From assembly GCA_000004695.1 (NCBI GenBank), contig CM000151.3:6176001-6240000 (forward strand): a stretch of 64,000 nucleotides of DNA, in the 5' to 3' direction. The notes under the pieces are model-generated. The model worked only from the letters and a program-made list of their open reading frames with translations. It did not search any database and had not been told where the DNA came from. This document shows, one piece after another, positions 1 to 51,802 of the stretch. The DNA comes from Dictyostelium discoideum. Its lineage: Eukaryota. Made by a program: the position numbers and the translations under genes. Every line of letters starts with the position of its first letter. Within the stretch, counting starts at the first letter, position 1.

Positions 1-23
1 TTTTTCTTTTTTTTTTAATAAAG

Positions 24-771
24 ATGAATATCGGAGATCCAGTTAGAAAACATAATGGTAGTATTGGTTCAAATAATTTATTTAATGGTGTTTCAATGAG
101 TAATGGTTATATTGGTAATGGTGGTATTATGAATGGAAATAATGGTATTAATTATAATGGTCATCAACAAAAGTTACATCATCATCATCCACATGGTCAA
201 ATTATTTATGATCCACAACAATCACCATCACAAACACAACAACAACAACTTCACCACCTTCATCATCATGGACCTAATAGTGGTGGTAATTCACCGATTT
301 CCACATCTCTTCCATCTTCGACATCTTCAACTCCAAATATAATTTCTGCTCATCATTATGGAAATTCAAATGGAAATTTAAATAAAGTAATGTCATCATT
401 TAGTTCATTTAATATTAGTGATAATTCTTCAATAAATAACAATAATAATAATAATGGTAATGGTAATGAAAGACAAAGTGCAAATAATACTACTATTGGT
501 GGTGGTGGTGGAAATAATCACAATGGTGTGAATAGTGAAAATGGTAGAATACTTTCAAGAAATAACCATAACCATAATAATAGCAATCATATTAGTCATA
601 GTCATAATAATCATAACCATAATCATACTCATCATAATCATAGCAATGTTGGGATTGGTGGTGGTGGTAGTGGTAGTGTTAGTGGGAACATTCACAATCC
701 AAATTTATTAATTGAACAGCAACAGCAACAACAACAACATCTACAGTTACAGCAACAACAGCAACAACAGC

Positions 772-811
<40 letters not shown>

Positions 812-1208
812 TCCATATACTCAACAACATATGATGAATGGTGGTATTCAATATTATTATCCTAGTCCATATGGTGAGCCATTTTATCAAACTCATCCTC
901 ATCACCCATCTTATCAAATTTCATACCAAAATGGGCCCCCAATGAATACTCATCATCCTCATATCCCACATCACCCACACCATCCTCATCAACTTCCACA
1001 ACATCCATCACATCAGCATATGCATCATCCACAACACCCACATCATCCATCACATCATAATGGTAATGATATAATTAATGGAGTTGGTGGTGGTGGAGTT
1101 TCAACCAATGTTGGATTAAGTGGTAGTGGTGGAATTGATAATGAAATTGACTTAATTCAACAACAACAGCAACAACAACAACATCAACAACATCAACAAT
1201 CACATCAG

Positions 1209-1239
<31 letters not shown>

Positions 1240-1610
1240 CAATACTTCAACATTCAACTTATTTTAATACATCACCACAACCATATATCGGAGGACATCA
1301 TCAATATTATTCTTCAATGTCTCAAGCACCACCATCAATTCCACCACCACATTCATTATCTGGTCAAAATAATCAACCTCAAATTGGCTTTGATTCTTAT
1401 TCTCACCATCATCATCATCATCATTATCAACCATCATCACTAGCTAAAGAAAATGTTAAAACTAACAACAATAGTAGTAGTGGTGGTAGTAGTAGTGGTA
1501 ACAACACCAATAATAACAATAGTAATGCTGGTGGTGTCACAAGTAGTAACAGCAATAGTAATACTAAAAACAACCTAAGCAACAGTGGGAATCAAATTTA
1601 CTTTCGTTAA
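24..1610 (+). CDS. Hypothetical low-complexity protein rich in Gln/Asn/His/Ser, 528 aa, single exon
   Basis: Long ORF starting at the first ATG after an upstream poly-T tract. Contains poly-Q (CAA)n, poly-H, and N-rich and S-rich tracts typical of Dictyostelium proteins. No recognisable catalytic motif. Confidence 0.45.
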
Positions 1611-1868
1611 TAACACATGTTTGTGAATCTAAAAACTCTGATAAACGAGGTCGTATCTATTTAATTTTAATTTTTTTTTTTTTTTTTAGAAAAAAAAAAA
1701 ATAAAAAAAATAAAAAAAAAAAAAAATAAAAAAAAAAACTTGTGTAATATAAAAAAAAAAAAAAAAAAAAATAATCACAAAAAAAAATAAATAAAAAAAT
1801 TAATACAAAAAAAAAATAAATAAAAAAATTAATACAAAAACAAAATAATATGGACGTATGATTCGTTT

Positions 1869-1902
<34 letters not shown>

Positions 1903-2435
1903 GGGAAATTGAAAAAAATTATGATATTTTGGGAATCTAGATTTTTTACCACCAAAAAAAAAAAAACATTCCATAGAGTATTTTTTTAAAATTTTTACCC
2001 ACCCGCGATGTTTTAATTCCACCAGAAAATAACTTTTCTATTTTTTTTTTTTTTTTCAATTTTTCAATTTTTTTTTTTTTTTTATTTTTTGCATTCAAAA
2101 AAAAAAAAAAAAAAAAATATCAGAAGTCACATCATCAAATTTTTTATTTCCTATTTATTAAATTATTTATATTATATTAATTTGTTTAAATTTTAATTGG
2201 ACCTGTTTTTTTTTATTTTAAATTTTTAAATTTTAAATTTTTTTTTTTTTGTATCAATAGGATAAAATTCAAAAAAAAAAAAAAAAAAAAACAAAAACAC
2301 AAAGAAAGAAAGAAAAATAAAAATAAAAAAAAAATAATATTAAGAAAATAACAATAAATAAAAACGAAAAAAAAAAAAAAATAATAAATAAAAGAAATAA
2401 AATTATATGATGTTGATTGTAATAGATATAATAAT

Positions 2436-2764
2436 ATGAGTTATCAACAATCAAAAGACCAACAACAACCCCAACAACAACAAAAATATTTAATACCAGT
2501 AAAATGTGTACTTATTGGTCCAACTTTTTCAGGTAAAACAAGTTTAGTAGTTAGACTTGTGCGTGAAACTTTTAGTAAAGAATCACAACCAACTGTAGGA
2601 GCAATGTTTTTAAATAAAACTTTTCAATTCTCAACTCATTTTATTAAATTAGAGGTAATTAATTTTATTCCCTTTTTTTTTTTTTTATTTTTATTTTTTT
2701 TTTTTTTTTAAATCATTTCCAATTAATTTATTATTTGATACTAATATTATTTGATTATACATTA

Positions 2765-2797
<33 letters not shown>

Positions 2798-3252
2798 AAA
2801 TCCGTTGGTCAGGTGTGGGATACTGCAGGACAAGAGAAATTTAATTCATTGGCTCCAATGTATTTTAAAAAAAGTAAAGTAGCAATTATTGTATTCGATT
2901 TATCAGATAGACAATCATTTGTTAAGGCTAAAATGTGGAATAATGAAGTAATGTATCTTTTTTTTTTTTTTTTATTATTGTTTCAAAAATTAATAATTAA
3001 TAATAATGTACTAATTAAATAATAATAGTTTAAAACACATGCAACAGAACCAGCAATAATGATATTAATAGGAAATAAATGCGATTTAAATAAAACAGTT
3101 TTACAATCTGATATTGATGATTTTATTAGAGAAGAAAAAGAAAATTCAATTGATTTCACTTATTTTGAAGCTTCTGCTAAAGAAAATACAAATGTAAATA
3201 ATATATTTGAAACAATTGGTATGTGTTATTATTTTATCATTTCGATTATTTG

Positions 3253-3293
<41 letters not shown>

Positions 3294-3411
3294 TAATAAC
3301 AACATAAAATAATTAGCGGGTAAGATACCATGGAAAGAGGAAATTAGAGAAAGAACAGAAGCACTTCAAGTTTCACCAGTAATAAATAAAAAAAAGAAAT
3401 GTTGTAAATAA
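2436..3411 (+). CDS. Rab-family small GTPase. Four exons: 2436..2654, 2813..2947, 3029..3218, 3317..3411
   Basis: G1 GPTFSGKTSLV and G3 WDTAGQEKF (exon 2 begins right after the acceptor cAG at 2811-2812). G4 LIGNKCDL, G5 EASAKENTNV. C-terminal CCK prenylation motif. Donors are GTAATT, GTAATG and GTATGT; acceptors are (T)nCAG, ATAG and TTAG. Reading frame is continuous across all junctions. Confidence 0.75.
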
Positions 3412-3451
<40 letters not shown>

Positions 3452-3942
3452 ATTAAAAAAAAAATTAAAAAATAAATAAAAATAATCCGAATTGGTTTGA
3501 ATATTCACTGTTATCCACATTTATGATTTTTTTATTATTTCTTATTTTTATTATTAAAATTTTTATTTTCAGACTAATTTTTTAAATCTTAATAGTTTGA
3601 TTTCTAATCACTTTTTTTTTTTTTTCTTTTTTGGTTTGTAATTAAAAAATCTTATATTGATAAAAAAACAAAATAAAATGAAATAAAATAAAATAAAATA
3701 AAATAAAATTGACACCTTCTTTGAAATCATTTTTTATTTTTTGTGATTTCATATGATAATATTCTATGAAATTTTTTTTTTTGTGTCTTCCTAAAATTTT
3801 TTTTTTTTTTTTTTAAAAAAGTTTTTTTTTTTATTACAATTCAATTGAACAATTGTTATATTCTTTTTTATGAATATATGTAAATAAATATATAAATTTT
3901 TACCAAACTTTTTTTTTTTTTCCCTTTTTTTTTTCAATAAAT

Positions 3943-4801
<859 letters not shown>

Positions 4802-4824
4802 TAAATATATTTTTTTTTTATTAT

Positions 4825-4865
<41 letters not shown>

Positions 4866-5125
4866 TTTTATAAAAAGAAATTAAAATTACAACCAAACAT
4901 TTATTTACTTTATTATTTTATAACTTTTTTTTTTTTTAAAATAAAACAACAATTGGTATTGATTATTTTTTGTAGTTATAAAACCTTATAAAAAAAAAAA
5001 AAAAAAAAATTTGATGGTTATATTTTTTGAACTTTTGAAGACAAGTGTTTGCAAGTTAGAAATTAAAAAAAAAAAAAAAATTTAAATACTGTTTTTATTT
5101 TTTAATATTAATAAAAAATTATAAA

Positions 5126-5165
<40 letters not shown>

Positions 5166-5980
5166 CTTAAATCCATCAAAATATACAAGATCTGTCAGCA
5201 TATCCAAAATCAAGTAAGTAAAAATAATAATAATTTTATAATTATAAATAAAAAATAAAAAATAATAAATAATAAAATATAATAAATAGAATAGATTTGG
5301 ATGTCATTTTTTTTTGATACTATATATTGATTGTTGATAAATAATACTAAATATTTAAATGGTAGATATAACAATGTCATTTTCACAATATTAAAATATA
5401 ATTGTTTTAAATATTCTTCTTCAAATTACTCATTAAATTTACAAGTTACGAATAAAGAGAAGAAGAAGAAGAAGAGGAGGATGAATAAAAATAAAAAATA
5501 ATAATAAGAAGAAGAAGCAGAATAAGAGGATATGACACTTGGGAAATTTCGAATATATTATCCAATAGTTGCAATTATTATATTATTAGATAATTTATTC
5601 TATATTACTCAATTGTTCTATCTTCCTATACTCATCCTTCTTCTTATTATTATTTTTATTTTTCATCATCTTCTTTTTTTCTTTTTCATTTTCTTGTCCA
5701 CTTGGAAATTTGAAGAGAAAAGAAGAATATTTATAAACAGTTCCGATTTTTCTCACTTAAATTGTCTAATATTGTTACTGGTTTTAGTGAATCTATTAAA
5801 GAATGTGTTATTGGAAGTTATCAAAACACCAGAATCATTTAGTATTATGAAAAACAAATCATTTAATCTTCACAATGAATGTTATTGTTACAATAGTAAT
5901 TCAAAGTCAATGTTTGCTTGTGAAAAAAGTAAAAATAATATCCAATAGTATTTTTTTTAATTGTTCATTTTCTATTATTA

Positions 5981-6054
<74 letters not shown>

Positions 6055-6223
6055 ATTATTATTATTTTTAAAAATTACATAACAATTTTTATTATTTATT
6101 TAAAATTTACTTATTGAATATTTGTACAACAAAAATGGTAAAAGATCATCAATCCCAGTTTCCTTCAATTCATCAAAATTGAACTATGTAATATATGGTG
6201 AATATAGGTATTAAAATTGAAGA

Positions 6224-6479
6224 TGTAATAAAGTTACTCTATAAAATTAATAGATATTAAATATGCATATTACATTACTAATTATAGTTGACACACATTT
6301 AAATAATATAATAATAATACTGTCAACTCATTATAAATAATATAAATACTAAAGAATAATTTTATTAACAATATTGAATATCATAAATATAAACTAATAT
6401 TAAATAAAGATAACAAAGTATTATTCAATTATATAATTATTAATTATATATATTTATAAAGCTAACAAGCTTTATTACA
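6224..6479 (+). repeat. 5' LTR of the DGLT-A-like element, complete
   Basis: Direct repeat of 8576..8813. Terminal inverted repeat TGTAATAAAG/CTTTATTACA. Immediately followed by a putative primer-binding site TTTGGCGACATCG at 6480 onward. Confidence 0.8.
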
Positions 6480-6623
6480 TTTGGCGACATCGTCTTTCAA
6501 AAAAAAAAAAAAAAAAAAAAAATATATTATAAATATAAAGTTATCAAATTATTCAATCAATTAAAATTTTACATTAGATTAAATTTAATTTAATAAAATC
6601 TTAAAAAAAAAAAAAAAAAAAAA

Positions 6624-6668
<45 letters not shown>

Positions 6669-6671
<3 letters not shown>

Positions 6672-7946
6672 AGTAATAATGAAAACGTAATTTTTTCGGG
6701 TGATGGAAAAGGTTTATCATTTCGTAAATTCAAACACTTACTCTTATTAATTCATGGCGAGGAAATATCGAAAGCTGATATTATTAGAAAACTAAGAAAC
6801 AATGCATTGGAATATGCCGCAACATTGGATACAGACTTAACAGCAATGGAGATAATTGAAGATCTTAAAGATGCTTTTGGTATTGGTGATAGTGATGATT
6901 TAACAGAATTAACAAAGTTGGGAGAATATAAATACAATACATTAGATATATTAATTGGTAAATTTCTATCAAAATGTTCAGCAGTTGATATTTCAGAAAA
7001 GTTTAAAATACAATTGTTTTATTCAGCTGTTGGTACTGAATTGGGTATTGAAATTACAAAATGTGCACCAAAATCATTAAAAAGAGCAATAGATATTGCA
7101 AAGTCTTGTGAAGATGGTTCAATTCGTATCAAAGGTAGATCAATGTACACTGGTCAATTAGTTGCAAAGACGTTGCAAGAATTTGGTAATCAAAGATATC
7201 TAGGTTCGGGTTCTGGTTATTCTGCAACATCCCCTCAATATGTTACATCTCAAAACGAACAACAATCAATTGAATCTGAAGAAATTTCAACACCAATTTT
7301 TAAAAATCAATATTATAATCGATCACCACAAATGTCACCACAATCATCCCCTTATAAAGCACCACAAAATCAAGTAAATTCAATCACAAAATTTTGTAAA
7401 TATTGCAAAAAGAAAGGTCATGTAATTCAAGAGTGTTGGTCAAAAGATAAAAATAATAATAACAATTACAATAATAGAACTAATTCAATTACAATGGTCA
7501 ATAATAGTACAATTAATTCAATTGGAATAGATAGTATGAATGCAGCTTTATTAATAAATAATAAAAATGTTAGAGGTTTGATTGATACTGGTTCATCACT
7601 TACTATTGTTTGGGAAAGTATTGCTAAAAAGTTAAAATTAAAGATTGAAAATAAACAATATTCTGTTAAATCAGCATCAAATAATGAAATCAAAATCATT
7701 GGAATAAGTAACACAACAATTAAATTAGGTAAAGCATTGGCTAGAGTTAAAGTTAATGTTGTTAAAGATAATGATACATCAATTGATTGTATATTTGGCA
7801 TTGATACAATAATTGGATTAAATTTAGTCATTGATTTTAAAGAAATGATCATTAAGAATCTTGAATTCAATGTTGGTACCAAATTAATATCTAAAGAAAC
7901 CCAACCATGTATACAAACTATATTTAAAACAGTATCTGATTATTCA

Positions 7947-7977
<31 letters not shown>

Positions 7978-8438
7978 CATCAAAATCAGAATTATTAACA
8001 GATACTGATCATTTAATTGAAAATTTTAATTCTCATCATATACTATCAATCAAATCGTGTCCAACTATTGAAGAACAACTACCAATAGATTACGATATTC
8101 CAGAATTCTTATTCCAAGAACCAATAGATTCACCAATAACATCAAATTTACCATTAAAATCAATATCATTAAATCAAACAGAGAATTCAATAATTAAATC
8201 ACAAATAACCTCAATTCAACCATTAATAAGAAATCCATGTACAAATTTATCAAGATTAGATTTTGCTCATAATTTCGCCCAAATTGTAAATAATAACCTC
8301 AAACGTCCTTGTCTCATTAAGGATAATCTTGGTAAAGACCAATTATCACAAATTAATAAAAAAAGTTTCTCGTTCAAATATTCAAGTAGGAGATTATGTC
8401 TATTTACAATCCACTGTTGGTCCAGTAAAGCTCAATAA
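6669..8438 (+). CDS. Gag-protease polyprotein of the LTR retrotransposon, truncated, with RT/RNase H missing
   Basis: CCHC zinc knuckle CKYCKKKGHVIQEC. Retroviral aspartic protease motif LIDTGSS. The ORF then runs into sequence with no RT motifs and terminates. Confidence 0.7.
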
Positions 8439-8580
8439 ATCTTGGGAAGGTCTTTTCAAAGTACATGAGAGAGTTAGCGATTTAAAATTCAAATTAGTAT
8501 TGGATAATATTAAAAATCATGATGTGTTTTATATTAAAAGATTGAAAAATTTTTTTCAACTAAAAGGGGGGGATATGTAA
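8329..8580 (+). pseudogene. Integrase C-terminal remnant of the LTR retrotransposon, joined to gag-pro by an internal deletion
   Basis: VGDYVYLQ...KLNKSWEGLFKVHERVSDLKFKLVL...HDVFYIKRLK matches the conserved Ty3/gypsy integrase C-terminal pattern (GDxVxL...KLxxxWxGPFxV...YxLxLP...HxVFHVSxLK). It ends 13 bp before the PPT and 3' LTR. Confidence 0.6.
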
Positions 8581-8813
8581 TAAAGTTACTCTATAAAATT
8601 AATAGATATTAAATATGCATATTACATTACTAATTATAGTTGACACACATTTAAATAATATAATAATAATACTGTCAACTCATTATAAATAATATAAATA
8701 CTAAAGAATAATTTTATTAACAATATTGAATATCATAAATATAAACTAATATTAAATAAAGATAACAAAGTATTATTCAATTATATAATTATTAATTATA
8801 TATATTTATAAAG
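8576..8813 (+). repeat. 3' LTR of the DGLT-A-like element, 3'-truncated by the TRE5-A-like insertion
   Basis: Identical to the 5' LTR up to ...TATATATTTATAAAG, then a 17-nt T run begins. The missing 18 bp CTAACAAGCTTTATTACA are found at 11282..11299. Confidence 0.8.
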
Positions 8814-9145
8814 TTTTTTTTTTTTTTTTTGAATTGGATAACGCAATTATTATTTGCTTCTCCTTGAGATGCTAGATCTCATTTTATTTTTTTTTTTTTT
8901 TTACAGGGTCTTTTTGATTAAAACATCTTTTTTGTCCAAACTTTTTTCTAAATCTTTTTTTATTTTATCGTCTGGTTCGTGATTGATGTTTATGACGTAT
9001 TTGAATTGTTTTTTTTTTTTTAATTGAGTTTTATCCACAATTTCGCTTATTTTTTGTAGGCATTTGTGTTGCTTAATATTTGTGGTGTTGTTTGTGATTT
9101 TCATTTTATTTTCTTTCTATCTTTTTTATTTTTCTGATTAACTTG

Positions 9146-9217
<72 letters not shown>

Positions 9218-10940
9218 TATTAAGAAAAAGTAACTGAAGTGAATTATTGTATTTTTTTGAGATGTTTTAGGAAAGTTTCTAATTGCGGGGTGTTGAATGA
9301 ATGATTTTGTGACAACCCCTTGTCTTGTTTTTATCAATTGGTGCGTGGTGTGTTATTTTGTTTTTATATTGTTGATTTATTGAGTAAATTTTATTTGTTT
9401 TTATATTTGTTTCAGTTAGAAGTGCTGCGTCCAAGCTTGTTGTTGTCTAAAACGGTGTTTATTATGCTGGCAGATTGGATGGTGTTGGATCCTTGGACGT
9501 TCCAAACACATATTCTTATTGTGTTTTTCTTTATAGTTTTATTTGGGGTAGATTTTTATCTACCTTTTGAAGTTTCTGGTTTATTTTGTCTTCTAACTGA
9601 TCTTTACTTTGTTCGTTGTGTTGTTGGTCTTGTGTGTTTGTGGGGTTTTTTGATTTATTGATTTGTTTTAGAATTTCCTTGTTGAAGTTGTCTATATCTT
9701 CATCCATTTTTGTTTTTATGCTTTTTTGTCCATATTCACCCAATTTTGGTTTGACTGGTGTTTTGTTGGTCTTGTTTGTTTTGTCTTGTTGTTTCTTTTT
9801 TGGTGTGTTTAACAATTTACTTGGTGAATCGATAATTTTCGATGGTGTACCATAGGTTGGGCTGAAACTCATGATATGTTTTATTGGAGAGGAGAAGAAC
9901 CATTGATTTGAAGGGATTGAAAGTGGGAATTCTATTTTTCTTATTGCATCAGTGTTTGGGCTGGTGAAGTCGAAGATATCATTTACCTCTCTAAGTTTTT
10001 CTTCCGTTGTTAGTCTCTTTGTTTCGCCGTGTTGTTTTATTGGTGTATTGTATGGAGATGGTGGTTCAATAGGTTTTTCTGATTTTGTTTTAATTTCTTG
10101 ATTTTTTATCGATTGGGTATTGATCTCATTCTCTATTCTTGTTAGTTCATCTACGTTTTCTAGTGATGCATCTATTACCTTTTGAGCTGTATCATCTAGG
10201 GCCATAAATGTTTTATCATTAGATGAGGAGGTGATTGGTGGGATAATGATTGTTCTTTTTCCTTGTTTTGGTATTTGTTCTGATGTAGATTTTGGTTGTT
10301 GTTCATCTGATTGTTTTTTATTTTTGTTTTCTTCTTGATTTTCTGGTAATGAGGTTTGATCTCTCCATCCTTTGTTGGAGTGACCAATTAATGTTAGATT
10401 GTCTAGTTCAATGATAGTGTCAAATTCTTCTACGACTCTTTTCACTGTTTTGATAATTAGAGTTTCGCCTTTAATTTCTGATTTAATTAGTTTACATCCT
10501 TCATTTTCTATTACCCATTCTATTTCTGTGAGTGATTTATACCAATCAAAATCTGTATACATATTTTTTGGTCTTATAGTGGTTATAAATTGTCCTTTTA
10601 ATTCTGCATCAAACATATTTACAAAATAGATTACTGTACTAATACTGTCTGTGAGAATTTTGAATGTATTATTACTTTTGATTAAAACATCTTTTTTGTC
10701 CAAACTTTTTTCTAAATCTTTTTTTATTTTATCGTCTGGTTCGTGATTGATGTTTATGACGTATTTGAATTGTTTTTTTTTTAATTGAGTTTTATCCACA
10801 ATTTCGCTTATTTTTTGTAGGCATTTGTGTTGCTTAATATTTGTGGTGTTGTTTGTGATTTTCATTTTATTTTCTTTCTATTTTTTATATTTTTCTTTAA
10901 AAAGTTAAAAATCTGGAAATTTTCTGATTAACTTGGTTCC

Positions 10941-10996
<56 letters not shown>

Positions 10997-11266
10997 TCTT
11001 TTTTATATGAAAAATGAAATAATCAAAAAAAGAGATTGTTGTTGTTGTTTGTTTTTTTTCGATCTGATTATTTTTTGCTTTTTTTTGAAAATTTTGCTAC
11101 GCAAAATTCTCAAAACGAAACAAATAATAAATTACAATAAAGTAAAAAGATGGCTTTTTAAGATAGTTTATTTATTTATTTATTTGTTTTTTAAGTCTTT
11201 TTTATATGAAAAATGAAATAATCAAAAAAAGAGATTGTTGTTGTTGTTTGTTTTTTTTCGATCTCC
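8814..11266 (-). mobile_element. TRE5-A-like non-LTR, tRNA-targeted retrotransposon, non-autonomous with ORF1 only, nested in the LTR
   Basis: Poly(A) tail, seen as 17 T on the plus strand, at 8814..8830. A 15-bp TSD TATATATTTATAAAG at 8799..8813 and 11267..11281. The 5' end lies exactly 47 bp upstream of the tRNA-Arg start. Internal direct repeats of about 200 bp (8920..9120 and 10670..10870, B-module-like) each contain the ORF1 start and each is preceded by a long oligo(A) (9150..9212 and 10942..10993). The 5' A-module-like region carries an 80-bp tandem duplication (10997..11075 and 11192..11270). Confidence 0.6.
9531..10865 (-). CDS. TRE5-A-like ORF1 protein, 444 aa, lysine/glutamate-rich
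   Basis: Intact ORF on the element sense strand. Its first 66 codons are duplicated at 8901..9104 as part of the 3' B-module-like copy. The size fits my recollection of a roughly 51-kDa TRE5-A ORF1 product. Confidence 0.55.
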   Translation of the reverse strand: MKITNNTTNIKQHKCLQKISEIVDKTQLKKKQFKYVININHEPDDKIKKDLEKSLDKKDVLIKSNNTFKILTDSISTVIYFVNMFDAELKGQFITTIRPKNMYTDFDWYKSLTEIEWVIENEGCKLIKSEIKGETLIIKTVKRVVEEFDTIIELDNLTLIGHSNKGWRDQTSLPENQEENKNKKQSDEQQPKSTSEQIPKQGKRTIIIPPITSSSNDKTFMALDDTAQKVIDASLENVDELTRIENEINTQSIKNQEIKTKSEKPIEPPSPYNTPIKQHGETKRLTTEEKLREVNDIFDFTSPNTDAIRKIEFPLSIPSNQWFFSSPIKHIMSFSPTYGTPSKIIDSPSKLLNTPKKKQQDKTNKTNKTPVKPKLGEYGQKSIKTKMDEDIDNFNKEILKQINKSKNPTNTQDQQHNEQSKDQLEDKINQKLQKVDKNLPQIKL

Positions 11267-11313
11267 TATATATTTATAAAGCTAACAAGCTTTATTACAA
11301 AGAATTCATCAAA

Positions 11314-11386
11314 GCCCGTTTAGCAAAGTTGGAATTGCGGCAGCCTTCTAAGCTGCAGGTCGTGGGATCGAGACCCACAATGGGTG
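11314..11386 (+). tRNA. tRNA-Arg, anticodon UCU
   Basis: Cloverleaf: acceptor GCCCGTT/AATGGGT with two G-U pairs, D arm GCAA-AGTTGGAA-TTGC, anticodon stem GCAGC/GCTGC with loop CTTCTAA, T arm GTGGG-ATCGAGA-CCCAC, and a TTTTT terminator at 11389..11393. An identical copy lies on the minus strand at 51036..51108. Confidence 0.8.
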
Positions 11387-11416
11387 AATTTTTATGGGGA
11401 GAAAAGCAAAATCGTA

Positions 11417-11470
11417 GGTTCGATTCCTAGTAAAAAAAATATAAAAAAAATATAAAAAAGGTTCGATTCC
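11417..11470 (+). promoter_or_regulatory. Two tandem external B-box (ex-B) elements GGTTCGATTCC downstream of tRNA-Arg
   Basis: GGTTCGATTCC at 11417..11427 and again at 11460..11470. This matches the known Dictyostelium pattern of an extra B box 20-40 bp downstream of tRNA genes. Here the element is duplicated. Confidence 0.55.
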
Positions 11471-11950
11471 TAGTCCTCTAATTCCAACAATTACACCACC
11501 AATTAATTATTAATTACCTAATCTAAAATAACATACCATTTTAAATTCTCAAAAAGTAAAAAACCTAAAATAAATAAATAAAAATAACATACTAATTGTA
11601 TACTACAATAGTTTATTTATAAAAAAAAAAAAATCCTAGTCTTCTAAAATGAAATTGAAAAAAAACAAATGATTAAGAAATTAACTTGAAAAGTATATTA
11701 TTCCAGAATCAATACTTACAAATAGTTTCTCCTTTGTAATTTATTAATTGAATTGGTGGAACTGATTTATTTTTTTAATTTATTTATAAACAAAAATAAA
11801 AGCCACACTTTATTTTTAAATTAAAATTCCTTATTTGAAAATTAAAATTAAAAGGAATAACTTCTTTACATTTTAAAATTCTCACCTTTAAAAAAAAAAA
11901 ATAATAAACAATAAAAAAAATATATCTTATAAATTATTTTATTTTAAATA

Positions 11951-39815: not shown

Positions 39816-40011
39816 TTACTTTTAAAATATATAAATTGTAATAACAACAAGAACAACAACAATAACAATAACAATAATAATTTCAAAACCAAAAAAAAAC
39901 TTTATCCTTCAATTACCGAAATCTCCACTTTTAATTATTTTTTTTTTTGTTTAAAAAAAATAAATAAATAAATAAATGTATATATAATTTCTTAAAAATT
40001 TATTCTTTATT

Positions 40012-41418
<1,407 letters not shown>

Positions 41419-41775
41419 TTTTTATAGTATAAAAAAAAGAAAAAAAAAAAAAACAATAATAATAACATTTAAAAAAAAAACATAATAATAATAAATTAAA
41501 AATAAAAAAAAAAACAATTATAATAACATTTTAAAAAAATAGTTTAATTTATTTATTTTAGTAGTTTTAATACACACACAACACCACGAATTCTGAATAA
41601 TAAAAAAAAATTAAGACACTGTTTTTTTTTTTTATAAAAAAAAATTAATTATTAGATTATTAATTCCTTTCTTTTTTCATTTTCATATTTTTTTTATGAA
41701 AATAAAAAAAAAAGAAAGAAAAAAAAAAACAAAATAAAAAATAAAAAATAAAAATGCTTTTTAAAAATTTATTCT

Positions 41776-42072
41776 TTATATTATTTTAAAGTTTTTAAAT
41801 TTTTCAATTGAATCAAAGAATGTTGTAGTATCAGATTTACCTTTTGAGAGTGGACATAATAATAAAATTGATTCATTTTTAAAATAATCGTTTTTTGGAA
41901 TTATATCCAAAATATGATTAATTAATACTGTGGTTGGAGAAATTTCAACAAAAACTACTTTTTCACCTAAATTATTATTTTCAATATGATTAAATAAACT
42001 TTTAATTGATTGATTATATTTAACTGGAGCTCTAATATTTTGAAAAAGATACTCATTATCAAATAAAAATAA

Positions 42073-42142
<70 letters not shown>

Positions 42143-43062
42143 TGTTGGTTACTAATAACATTATTAACAGGAACAACAATAACATCATTATCTTGATTGT
42201 TATTTAAAACATTGAAAAATTTACAATTCACACATGACATCATTGGTACTATATTGGAATTTGATGAAGAAAATAAAGAAATTGGATTTTTTAAATAATT
42301 AAATTTTAAATTCATTATTTCATTTTTAACGATATCTTGTGAAGAAGTATGAAATGATGTTGGTACTGGTATCATTTTAGCAAAAATACCAGCATTTGAA
42401 ATTTCATTTGATAATTTTAATAAATCACTATTTTTACCACCAACCATTATAGAATTATCATCACAATAAATTGCAATTTCAATATTTTTATACTTTTTTA
42501 AATAATTTTCATTAAATTCTTTTTCTGTAATATTAATTTTACATAATCCATTTTCAAATTTATTAATATTATAAATGCAATTATCAATAATATTATTATA
42601 ATTATTATTTTCATTCAAAGATAATTTAATTGTTTTCTTTTGTAGGATTGATCTATTATATAAAATATAACAAGCACTTTCAAAATCTAGTAAACCAGAA
42701 CAATATGAAGATGCAATTTCACCACAACTAATTCCAAAATTATAATTTGGTTTAATACCATAATGTTTTAATAATTTAAATAATGAAATTTGAAACATGA
42801 ATAAAATTGAATGAGATAAACATTGTTCACTTAACTCTTCACTGTTTTTATCATCAATATTTCTTAATTTTTCAATCATTGAATATCCAAAATATTTTTC
42901 ATTCAACCAATTATCAACTCTATCCATTTCATTTCTAAAGATAATTTCATTTTCATATAATTCTTTCGACATACCACTCCAATGAATACCTTGTCCTACA
43001 AATATAAAAATAATATTTACTTTTTCATTTTCTTTTAAACCTTTTATATTATTTTCATTCAT
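41776..43062 (-). CDS. Standalone acyltransferase-domain protein, tandem copy 2, about 428 aa counted from the MNENNIKGL start
   Basis: Near-identical paralog of copy 1: VGQGIHWSGM, GISCGEIASSY, PVPTSFHTSS. It has much shorter Asn tracts. The track ORF is extended upstream by 29 hydrophobic poly-F codons that are probably not coding. Confidence 0.65.
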
Positions 43063-43624
43063 TTTTAATAATAATATGTAAACTTTATTTTTTTTTTTTA
43101 AAAAAAAAAAAACAAAAATAATAATAAAAAAAAAAAACAAAAAAAACAATTATAATAATATTTAAAAAAGGTTTAATTTATAATATATATTTTATTTTAA
43201 TTTATTGTTTTATTACACATACATTTTAACTAATTGTTTTATTACAAACACCACTAATTCTTAATAATAAAAAAAAAAAAAAAATGAAAAAGACATAACC
43301 ACTGGTTATTTTTTAAAAAAAAATCCAAAAAAGATAATATAATATCTTTGAGATATTAAAAAAAAACAAGTAGAAAATAAATAAAAATAAATAAAATAAT
43401 TAATAAATATATTTATAATTTATTTATATTTCTTTCAAATAAAAAAAAAAACTTAATTGATTCATAGTAGAAAAAAAAAAAAAAAAAAAAAATGCTTTTT
43501 AAAAATTTATTCTTTATTTAATTTTAAGGGTGGTTAGATGTAAAAATTTCAGCTTTAATGTGGTGGTTTGTAGACTTTTTTTTTAACTTTTATTTTTTTA
43601 TTTCCTATAAGGCTCCCCTTAATT

Positions 43625-43928
43625 TTATTTAAAGTTTTTAAATTTTTTAATTGAATCAAAGAATGTTGTAGTATCAGATTTACCTTTTGAGAGTGGACAT
43701 AATAATAAAATTGATTCATTTTTAAAATAATCATTTTTTGGAATAATATTTAAAATATGATTAACTAATACTGGAGTTGGTGCAATTTCAACAAAAACTA
43801 CTTTTTCACCTAAATTGTTATTTTCAATATGATTAAATAAACTTTTAATTGATTGATTATATTTAATTGGAGCTCTAATATTTTGAAAAAGATATTCATT
43901 ATCAAATAAAAATAAATTATTATTATTA
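43625..43928 (-). CDS. Standalone acyltransferase-domain protein, tandem copy 3. Only the C-terminal about 100 codons are present; the 5' part is lost in the assembly gap
   Basis: The sequence 43640..43920 is about 95% identical to the 3' ends of copies 1 and 2, down to the stop and the downstream TTTAAAAATTTATTCTTTAT motif. Confidence 0.6.
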
Positions 43929-44038
43929 TTATTATTATNNNNNNNNNNNNNNNNNNNNNNNNNNNNNNNNNNNNNNNNNNNNNNNNNNNNNNNNNNNNNN
44001 NNNNNNNNNNNNNNNNNNNNNNNNNNNNNNNNNNNNNN
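43929..44038. other. Assembly gap of 110 N
   Basis: A run of N characters. It is flanked on one side by the tandem AT-domain array and on the other by the 3' exon of the next gene. Confidence 1.
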
Positions 44039-50997: not shown

Positions 50998-51035
50998 GCG
51001 ACTTTGATGTTCCGCAGTAAAAATAATTCACCCAT

Positions 51036-51108
51036 TGTGGGTCTCGATCCCACGACCTGCAGCTTAGAAGGCTGCCGCAATTCCAACTTTGCTAAACGGG
51101 CTTTGTTG
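51036..51108 (-). tRNA. tRNA-Arg, anticodon UCU, second identical copy
   Basis: Reverse complement is identical to 11314..11386. An ex-B-like box GGTTCGATGTC lies about 33 bp downstream (plus-strand 50993..51003). Confidence 0.8.
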
Positions 51109-51802
51109 AAAATTTAGTTTTTGTACGGCTATAAATTTATATTTTGATTACAAATAAACTCCTAGAACACACCCAAATTGAGTGATGTTATTAAAAAAAA
51201 AAAAAAAAAAAAAATTTATATTTTAATATTTTTGAATCTCATGTTATAGATATCGAGGAGAATCTACTAACAATTGCATTATTTCATTCAAAAAAAATTT
51301 GTATATTTATATTTTTACTATCAAATATTTGAAAATATTTTTATATATTTTTATAATGTTTACAACATTAAATTAAATTATTATTTGAAATATATTAGTA
51401 GTACATTGTAATTTGTAATGAAGGCGAACGAGGTTTCATTACAATTTAAAAAATATCAATATTTTAATTTATAAATAATTATTTTAATTCTATTATTATT
51501 TTAGATAGATATATATTTAAAATATATTTTTAAAACATATTTAAAATATATCTAAATAATAAAAAATAAAAATATTTTAAATAAATAGACTAAAAATATT
51601 TTTTTTTATTTTTTATTTTCATTTTTTTTTTTTTTTTTGAAAATATCTTTGTGGATTTTAAACAAAAGTGTAAGAGAATATCAAAAAGAACAATAAAATT
51701 CGTCAGAAAGATTTTTTTAATTCCCAAACAGAAGGTGAAATTATTTTTTTTTTTTTTTTATTAATGGTGAAAGTGGTGAAAAGAAAATTCTAAATAAAAT
51801 TA

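Follow-up and report, generated by a model that had tools for sequence, protein, structure and literature searches.

Background

DGLT-A is a long terminal repeat (LTR) retrotransposon of Dictyostelium discoideum with a consensus of 5054 bp and LTRs of 265 bp (Spaller 2016). Twenty insertions have been counted in D. discoideum; none of the nine non-solo copies of AX4 is full-length, and the element may be inactive (PMC5006619, PMC5633606). Kling et al. 2018 (PMC6101501) had no transposition-competent DGLT-A in hand, and placed the domains of its polyprotein at residues 2-236 (GAG), 231-425 (PR), 419-742 (RT) and 733-879 (RNH), followed by an integrase composed of IN-NTD (994-1147), IN-CCD (1148-1313) and IN-CTD (1314-1437). 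The present analysis deals with a DGLT-A element that begins at position 6224 of a 64,000-nucleotide stretch of D. discoideum chromosome 2 (GenBank assembly GCA_000004695.1, contig CM000151.3, positions 6,176,001 to 6,240,000, forward strand). This whole stretch is referred to as the window, and positions are counted from its first letter. The element is very probably a member of a non-autonomous DGLT-A subfamily of about 2.6 kb, which would be mobilised by the proteins of DGLT-A copies bearing reverse transcriptase (RT) and integrase (IN).

Non-autonomous LTR elements of plants and fungi such as BARE-2, Dasheng, LARDs and TRIMs keep their LTRs, primer-binding site and polypurine tract and are amplified by autonomous partners. 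LARDs and TRIMs are without coding capacity, and BARE-2 is without a functional Gag. Within Dictyostelium, TRE5-A.2 is a derivative of TRE5-A.1 that has lost ORF2 and was mobilised in trans experimentally (PMC3159450). In D. purpureum, Dp_DGLT-A.4 and Dp_DGLT-A.5 have been described as 3.4-kb tRNA-associated LTR elements offering no open reading frames (ORFs) for phylogeny (Spaller 2016).

Comparison with described elements

The window element resembles DGLT-A in its LTRs with TG/CA ends (256 against 265 bp), exact primer-binding site, polypurine tract, homologue of IN-CTD and absence of a chromodomain. As in DGLT-A, a single ORF opens with a CX2CX4HX4C gag and continues into protease, and the insertion has a short target duplication and lies 14 bp upstream of a tRNA gene. 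The two differ in length, the window element being about 2.45 kb shorter (2608 bp after subtraction of a nested element), and in the loss of the RT catalytic domains, RNase H, IN-NED, zinc finger and DDE core; the IN-CTD is about 49% identical to that of DGLT-A and its GPF motif is lost. The first-pass annotation of this DNA had proposed a Ty3/gypsy derivative of the DGLT-A type without RT, RNase H and integrase core, which is in accordance with the exact primer-binding site, the layout and the distance to the tRNA gene.

The organisation of TRE5-A.2 is comparable, as both elements are internally deleted, keep the first protein (ORF1 there, Gag here) and the cis-acting ends, and are targeted to tRNA genes; the missing enzyme is provided there, and would be provided here, by full-length relatives. 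TRE5-A.2 is however a non-LTR element using target-primed reverse transcription, and its mobilisation in trans is proven and an active TRE5-A.1 exists, whereas mobilisation of the window element is deduced and no intact DGLT-A of AX4 is known. With BARE-2, LARDs and TRIMs the element shares the presence of LTRs, primer-binding site and polypurine tract and the absence of its own RT and IN; unlike them, it keeps a constrained gag and protease, and only the enzymes encoded beyond the protease are missing. Classification as a LARD or TRIM was ruled out by the ORF of 589 amino acids (632-642 in the sister copies) and by the purifying selection on gag and protease. Going by their description, Dp_DGLT-A.4 and Dp_DGLT-A.5 are likewise short elements of the DGLT-A class which lie upstream of tRNA genes and cannot be autonomous; the long intact gag-protease ORF distinguishes the D. 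discoideum short form from them. The element is thus of an ordinary kind, a non-autonomous LTR retrotransposon, and its characterisation is modestly new. No description of an amplified short DGLT-A subfamily was found in the literature searched, which did not include the first account of DGLT-A (Glöckner et al. 2001).

Boundaries of the element

A direct repeat of 239 nt with 100% identity was found at 6223-6461 and 8575-8813. A 30-nt motif from the LTR start occurs in the window at 6224 and 8576 only and gave no match in shuffled sequence. The 5' LTR occupies 6224-6479 on the plus strand (256 bp, TGTAATAAAG...CTTTATTACA), and its ends TGTAATAAAG and CTTTATTACA form a perfect 10-bp inverted repeat with TG/CA termini. 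The 3' LTR, recognised by the repeat and the start motif, is represented at 8576-8813 (plus strand) by its first 238 bp. The repeat breaks off 18 bp before the LTR end, and the absent piece AGCTAACAAGCTTTATTACA was located at 11280-11299. The interval is filled by a TRE5-A.2 element, whose right-hand target duplication (11268-11281) is followed by the terminal 18 bp of the DGLT-A 3' LTR on the plus strand (11282-11299, ending ...CTTTATTACA). When the two parts (8576-8813 and 11282-11299) were rejoined, a 3' LTR of 256 bp was obtained which is identical to the 5' LTR at 256/256 positions. The real extent of the DGLT-A element is 6224-11299, comprising 2608 bp of DGLT-A and the 2.45-kb nested element.

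The end of the element, placed at 8813 in the first-pass annotation, had therefore to be shifted to 11299, as the 3' LTR is split by TRE5-A.2. The accompanying statement that the LTR termini, primer-binding site and polypurine tract are intact held for the 10-bp inverted repeat and TG/CA ends of the 5' LTR and for both internal signals, and failed for the 3' LTR terminus at 8813. The separation of the LTRs, given there as about 2.1 kb, was measured as 2096 bp from LTR end to LTR start.

The outer LTR ends are adjoined by a target-site duplication AAGA (6220-6223 on the left and 11300-11303 on the right). The primer-binding site TGGCGACATCGTCTTTC at 6482-6498 (plus strand) begins 2 bp past the 5' LTR and is an exact match to the published primer-binding site of D. 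discoideum DGLT-A (PMC5006619). The polypurine tract AAAAGGGGGGGATA at 8562-8575 (plus strand) abuts the 3' LTR, a placement that fits the published DGLT-A layout. A reading of the repeat as a solo LTR (H3R element) was excluded by the two LTRs with 2.1 kb of internal sequence.

Coding content and the extent of the loss

The ORF at 6669-8438 on the plus strand encodes 589 amino acids and covers gag, protease, a degenerate remnant of the RT N-terminus and a spacer. It is identical over its full length to DDB_G0276009 (XP_643380.1, UniProt Q552K2), which is annotated as "peptidase A2 domain-containing protein" on the 8.48-Mb chromosome 2 of D. discoideum AX4. The gag zinc knuckle CKYCKKKGHVIQEC (CX2CX4HX4C) lies at residues 243-256 (7395-7436). 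Residues 295-379 (7551-7805) matched Pfam Asp_protease_2 with E = 6.6e-11, above the curated cut-off, and the DTGSS protease motif is found at residue 306 (7584-7598). A CCHC gag and a DTG protease, both recognised earlier from the sequence, are thereby borne out. The absence of RT and RNase H claimed with them agrees with the Pfam search of the element ORF, in which no RVT, RNase H, Integrase_H2C2 or rve match was obtained. The gag-protease part is 74% identical in protein to that of an RT-bearing copy.

Colinear DNA identity (83%) to the RT-bearing sequences L001/P0004 ends at 7928. Beyond this point, residual DNA homology to L001 was detected at 7974-8025 (79%, E = 5e-7), and the protein alignment of the window element with the RT-bearing copy pairs KSSKSELLTDTDHLIE with KLSKPGSLIDVEHSIK. 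A degenerate remnant of the RT N-terminus, from the part 5' of the catalytic RT domains and carrying an (AAT)n expansion, therefore reaches to about 8066 (7929-8066, plus strand). It is followed at 8067-8240 (plus strand) by a spacer of about 175 bp (about 58 codons) whose source is unplaced. The spacer is 99-100% identical among the AX4-type short copies. In composition-matched shuffles it gave marginal scores, unconvincing after multiple testing, against the RNase H-integrase linker (z = 2.2, p = 0.03) and the RT thumb of a distant relative (z = 2.8, p = 0.02), and shuffle tests showed no similarity to the P0004 RT N-terminus or to the integrase core. The placement was judged against partial sequences of the full-length polyprotein, and L001 itself is truncated inside RT.

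The remnant of the integrase C-terminal domain lies at 8241-8577 (plus strand, out of frame) and corresponds approximately to residues 1323-1437 of the DGLT-A polyprotein. In tblastn with the AX4 integrase fragment DDB_G0286503 (E = 1.7e-20 overall), residues 404-438 aligned with 8241-8342 at 60% identity and residues 440-517 with 8329-8556 at 48%. Since DDB_G0286503 ends at the polyprotein C-terminus, its residue 404 corresponds to about residue 1323, and the 3' part kept is therefore essentially IN-CTD. The window-type domain shares about 49% protein identity with its canonical counterpart, has GLF in place of the GPF motif, and matched no chromodomain; the Pfam SH3_Tf2-1 match to the integrase C-terminus was weak and below the cut-off. 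An integrase C-terminus just before the polypurine tract had been noticed in the first reading and is supported by these alignments, with the amendment that it is out of frame in this copy. The single deletion from RT to the end of integrase proposed in the same reading was not demonstrated, as the RT remnant is retained, and one deletion cannot be told from two because the spacer is unplaced.

A run of seven A at 8358-8364, where other copies have six, causes a frameshift, and the same run is present in an independent assembly of the locus (GCA_054883475.1). The extra A accounts for the early stop of the ORF and for the integrase remnant being out of frame with gag-protease, so that IN-CTD is taken out of the encoded protein.

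Further copies of the short form

The layout of LTR, primer-binding site, gag (CCHC), protease, RT N-terminal remnant, spacer, degenerate IN-CTD, polypurine tract and LTR was recovered at other loci. In protein clusters at 90% identity, DDB_G0276009 groups with the AX4 proteins DDB_G0279931 (636 amino acids), DDB_G0271456 (642 amino acids) and DDB_G0287455 (partial), and a further relative of the ORF is P0002 (617 amino acids). DDB_G0276009, DDB_G0279931, DDB_G0271456, DDB_G0287455, DDB_G0286503 and DDB_G0276011 are mentioned in no paper of the searchable literature. The copies L002, L003, L007 and L008 were taken from a second assembly of the AX4 lineage, GCA_054883475.1, which also holds the locus of the window itself (L006, colinear with window positions 1-11257 at 98.9%).

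L002 (DDB_G0279931, 9569-12162) is 98.8% identical to the window element over 2590 bp, is flanked by TTTC and lies 14 bp from a tRNA-Ile gene with its 5' LTR proximal. L007 (DDB_G0271456, 5565-8192) is 97% identical, is flanked by ACGG and lies 28 bp upstream of tRNA-Val, while L003 (7562-10179), a mosaic with 91.5% identity, is flanked by CTAA and lies 14 bp upstream of tRNA-Leu(UAA). In L008 (DDB_G0287455 type, 5583-8169, 98%) the 5' LTR is cut by 19 bp by a poly(A) element and the duplication is unreadable. The same short architecture is therefore present in the window and at no fewer than four more loci of the AX4 lineage (five in all), and at two in another isolate. A search for copies sharing the breakpoints had been suggested in the first-pass annotation, and it yielded these at least four further loci, each with its own target duplication where readable.

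The 4-bp duplications of the four copies with both ends intact all differ (AAGA, TTTC, ACGG and CTAA). The flanking DNA is unrelated between loci, the target tRNA genes are different (at 14, 14, 28 and 14 bp), and both orientations were seen. Every short copy lies beside a tRNA gene, directly so in six of the seven, and no substitution separates the two LTRs of any of them. Unrelated flanks, own duplications and substitution-free LTR pairs therefore indicate independent, integrase-type insertions of an element that was already shortened. An in-place origin, in which a full-length DGLT-A at this locus lost the segment from RT to integrase in one genomic deletion and was left as a one-off dead copy, would be the simplest reading of a single window and fits the report that all AX4 copies are incomplete (PMC5006619); as the same structure, with remnant and spacer 99-100% identical, recurs at four or more loci with other flanks, duplications and tRNA genes, it can practically be set aside.

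Two sister copies of about 2.67 kb, L009 and L010, were found in isolate GCA_054859385.1, each close to a different tRNA-Leu gene (at 12 and 14 bp, respectively). Their layout is that of the window type, to which they are 76% identical in DNA. The ORFs of 633 codons (6001-7899 in both L009 and L010) are identical to each other although the two loci have different tRNA-Leu genes. This identity implies very recent transposition in GCA_054859385.1 and hence, as judged from sequence, a working helper there. The large RT/IN gene beside L010 was considered as a DGLT-A and rejected, being only about 36% identical and fitting Skipper instead.

In natural isolates, the loci L004 (10001-13572) and L005 (10001-12371) represent a second, distantly related DGLT-A-like lineage that has protease, RT and integrase. 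Protein identity to the window type is 38-54%, DNA similarity is absent, and the roughly 10 kb compared on each side of the matched gene contained no tRNA gene.

Selection and recombination

All of the seven copies except that of the window, where the ORF is broken, have a single intact ORF of 632-642 amino acids that extends from the gag ATG to the 3' LTR. The ratio of nonsynonymous to synonymous substitution rates (dN/dS) was calculated by the Nei-Gojobori method, with L007 representing the window type, against the L009 type. Values of 0.15 for gag (271 codons), 0.27 for protease (136 codons), 1.13 for the RT remnant (45 codons), 1.56 for the spacer (58 codons) and 0.46 for IN-CTD (96 codons) were obtained, and gag plus protease differed from remnant plus spacer with p = 9e-9 (Fisher test). 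Comparison with L001 beyond gag was excluded, as an internal stop in L001 shifts the codon mapping. The ratios point to purifying selection on gag and protease between the two short lineages and to neutral evolution of the RT remnant and spacer. Since the remnant, which is conserved in RT-bearing relatives, evolves neutrally, most of the divergence postdates the loss of RT. The window element is not a recent derivative of canonical DGLT-A: its IN-CTD matches the canonical domain at about 49% of residues, and a short sister lineage with the same layout is 76% identical to it in DNA.

Mosaic patches, overall 73-88% identical to the window, were found in some copies. L003 is 99-100% identical to the window copy outside two of them. 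The patch at 7124-7330 is about 80% identical to the window and nearer to RT-bearing L001, and that at 8224-8560 is about 75% identical in DNA, its protein matching canonical DDB_G0286503 at 99% identity. In L007, a small patch resembling L001 is present at 7429-7477. These mosaics suggest recombination of short with long forms, as expected of template switching between co-packaged RNAs. They would indirectly support mobilisation in shared particles, with ectopic gene conversion as an alternative.

Alternative explanations

The short form might not replicate as a lineage at all; full-length elements might give rise to it again and again through a preferred template-switch deletion during reverse transcription. 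Retroelements often switch templates, the mosaic patches reveal recombination within the family, and L003 carries a canonical IN-CTD. Such regeneration is nevertheless improbable. The remnant and spacer are identical among the AX4 copies, highly diverged from the RT-bearing copy and neutral between lineages, and the window-type IN-CTD is about 50% diverged from the canonical domain. The neutral remnant and spacer and the diverged IN-CTD require long propagation in the deleted state.

The copies could also represent an immobile host gene family, a DGLT-A-derived gag-protease that has been domesticated. This would explain why six of seven ORFs are intact, why dN/dS of gag and protease is 0.15-0.27, and why the genes are annotated as ordinary hypothetical proteins. 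A domesticated family is, however, difficult to reconcile with the LTR pairs free of substitutions, the primer-binding site and the polypurine tract kept in all copies, with the fresh 4-bp duplications of the four copies intact at both ends, or with the position of all copies by tRNA genes. Two loci of one isolate moreover carry identical ORFs, which is a signature of recent transposition, and domestication is considered very unlikely.

Spread of the copies by segmental duplication or ectopic gene conversion instead of retrotransposition has next to no credibility, for although duplications are reported to be common in laboratory Dictyostelium stocks (PMC2643946), homology here breaks off precisely where the LTRs end, flanking sequences are unrelated, and the 4-bp duplications and tRNA genes differ for each intact copy, with both orientations represented.

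Proposed mode of mobilisation

The four or more additional loci with their own duplications, the sister lineage and the selection together lead to an amplified, long-lived, non-autonomous DGLT-A subfamily. Its anatomy, the independent insertions at the tRNA distance typical of DGLT-A, the youth of the copies and the selection on gag and protease are observed directly, and from them we infer mobilisation in trans and co-packaging with long forms. The short element would be transcribed from its own 5' LTR and would supply its own Gag and protease. Its RNA would be packaged by this Gag, and reverse transcription and integration would be carried out by the RT/RNase H and integrase of RT- and IN-bearing DGLT-A copies. 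Fragments of both kinds exist, with RT in L001/P0004 and IN in DDB_G0286503.

The short form is found beside tRNA genes, yet it is without RNase H and IN-NED, the DGLT-A domains that bind Tfc4 (PMC6101501). The Tfc4-binding RNase H and IN-NED of the helper would direct short copies to about 14 bp upstream of tRNA genes. The window copy inserted 14 bp upstream of the tRNA-Arg(UCU) gene with duplication of AAGA, and TRE5-A.2 arrived later, 46 bp upstream of the same gene and 18 bp before the DGLT-A 3' LTR ends.

Several points weigh against mobilisation by a helper. To our knowledge, trans-mobilisation of DGLT-A has never been demonstrated. No intact autonomous DGLT-A was present among the loci compared, nor is one known in AX4 (PMC5006619, PMC5633606), and the helper is for this reason hypothetical or extinct in AX4. 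The low dN/dS of gag and protease could partly have been imported by recombination with autonomous lineages. The common origin of the deletion in the window and L009 types would rest on similar size, junction residues and neutral remnants rather than on an exact DNA breakpoint. The window copy itself carries a frameshift and a split 3' LTR.

In a more far-reaching version, selection would maintain the short form as a "parasite of a parasite" that is older than the separation of D. discoideum lineages now 24% apart in DNA, is still mobile in some isolates and outnumbers its helper, and its Gag/protease or IN-CTD might interfere with full-length DGLT-A. This version is speculative and rather unlikely. 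If true, interference like that of Gag-derived copy-number-control or restriction factors could have aided the loss of autonomous copies from AX4.

The nested TRE5-A.2 and the tRNA target

The insertion within the 3' LTR occupies 8814-11267 on the minus strand (2.45 kb). Read along the plus strand, it consists of a poly(T) (8814-8830), a C-module remnant (8831-8911), a 3' B-module (8912-9135), ORF1 on the minus strand (DDB_G0276011, 9531-10865, 444 amino acids, a member of a multi-copy protein cluster), a 5' B-module (10676-10896) overlapping the ORF1 start, and A-modules (about 10897-11267). No RT ORF was found in 8814-11267. The element is bordered by a 14-bp target-site duplication of LTR sequence, ATATATTTATAAAG (8800-8813 on the left and 11268-11281 on the right). 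The published TRE5-A.2 is a non-autonomous TRE5-A derivative of structure AB-ORF1-BC without ORF2 and with a 72-bp deletion at the BC junction (PMC3159450). The window element is 71 bp shorter at this junction than the full-length TRE5-A found in L006, which matches the published 72 bp. By its structure, poly(A) tail and B/C deletion the insertion is assigned to TRE5-A.2.

The target tRNA-Arg(UCU) gene was identified by ARAGORN at 11314-11386 (plus strand). The true end of DGLT-A lies 14 bp upstream of it and the 5' end of TRE5-A.2 46 bp upstream, both within the published ranges of 13-33 bp for DGLT-A, in either orientation, and 40-54 bp for TRE5. TRE5-A.2 probably inserted into U5, as it lies 18 bp from the 3' LTR end and 3' of the LTR AATAAA. 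The nested element need not block mobilisation, because a U5 position there would not be part of the genomic RNA.

In L006 of GCA_054883475.1 (12480-17912), TRE5-A.2 is followed by ATATATTTATAAAG and then by a second, full-length TRE5-A in tandem, which has a complete C-module, an RT ORF of 1047 amino acids and an ORF1 of 444 amino acids. Either a second insertion took place at the identical site or the AX4 reference has collapsed a tandem pair; the right-hand junction of the tandem lies outside the sequence compared. Within the A-modules of the window TRE5-A.2, a 98-bp duplication (95% identical) was seen at 10968-11065 and 11167-11264, each copy being followed by TTCGATCT.

Other features of the window

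Two copies of GGTTCGATTCCTAG are located just 3' of the tRNA-Arg gene, at 11417-11430 and 11460-11473, and look like copies of the external B-box, a known feature of the sequence downstream of tRNA genes in Dictyostelium. A second tRNA-Arg(UCU) gene at 51029-51101 (minus strand) is 89% identical to the first over 120 bp with the flanks included (11305-11424 against 51110-50989). About 55 bp upstream of it, at 51150-51215, a short fragment with a poly(A) end, CTCCTAGAACACACCCAAATTGAGTGATGTTATT(A)n, was found, and a near-identical sequence directly adjoins the shortened 5' LTR of the DGLT-A copy in L008. The fragment probably represents the 3' terminus of a further non-LTR element targeted to tRNA genes. 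A tandem duplication at 39953-43938 (about 1.7 kb, 80-95% identical) covers the minus-strand ORFs 40012-41418 and 41776-43149, which are probably paralogous host genes.

Significance

The locus provides a clean case of two unrelated non-autonomous elements stacked at their characteristic distances from one tRNA gene. At least five non-solo DGLT-A copies of the AX4 lineage form one coherent 2.6-kb subfamily, and much of the DGLT-A remaining in the genome appears to consist of this short form rather than of a lone decayed copy. The short form naturally marks the cis sequences that are sufficient for DGLT-A mobilisation. Pairing a tagged short element with a reconstructed polyprotein would provide for LTR elements what the TRE5-A(bsr) assay provides for TRE5-A, and would test Tfc4-directed integration. 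The young LTRs, the mostly intact ORFs and the constrained gag and protease imply a recent competent helper, which may persist in some isolates.

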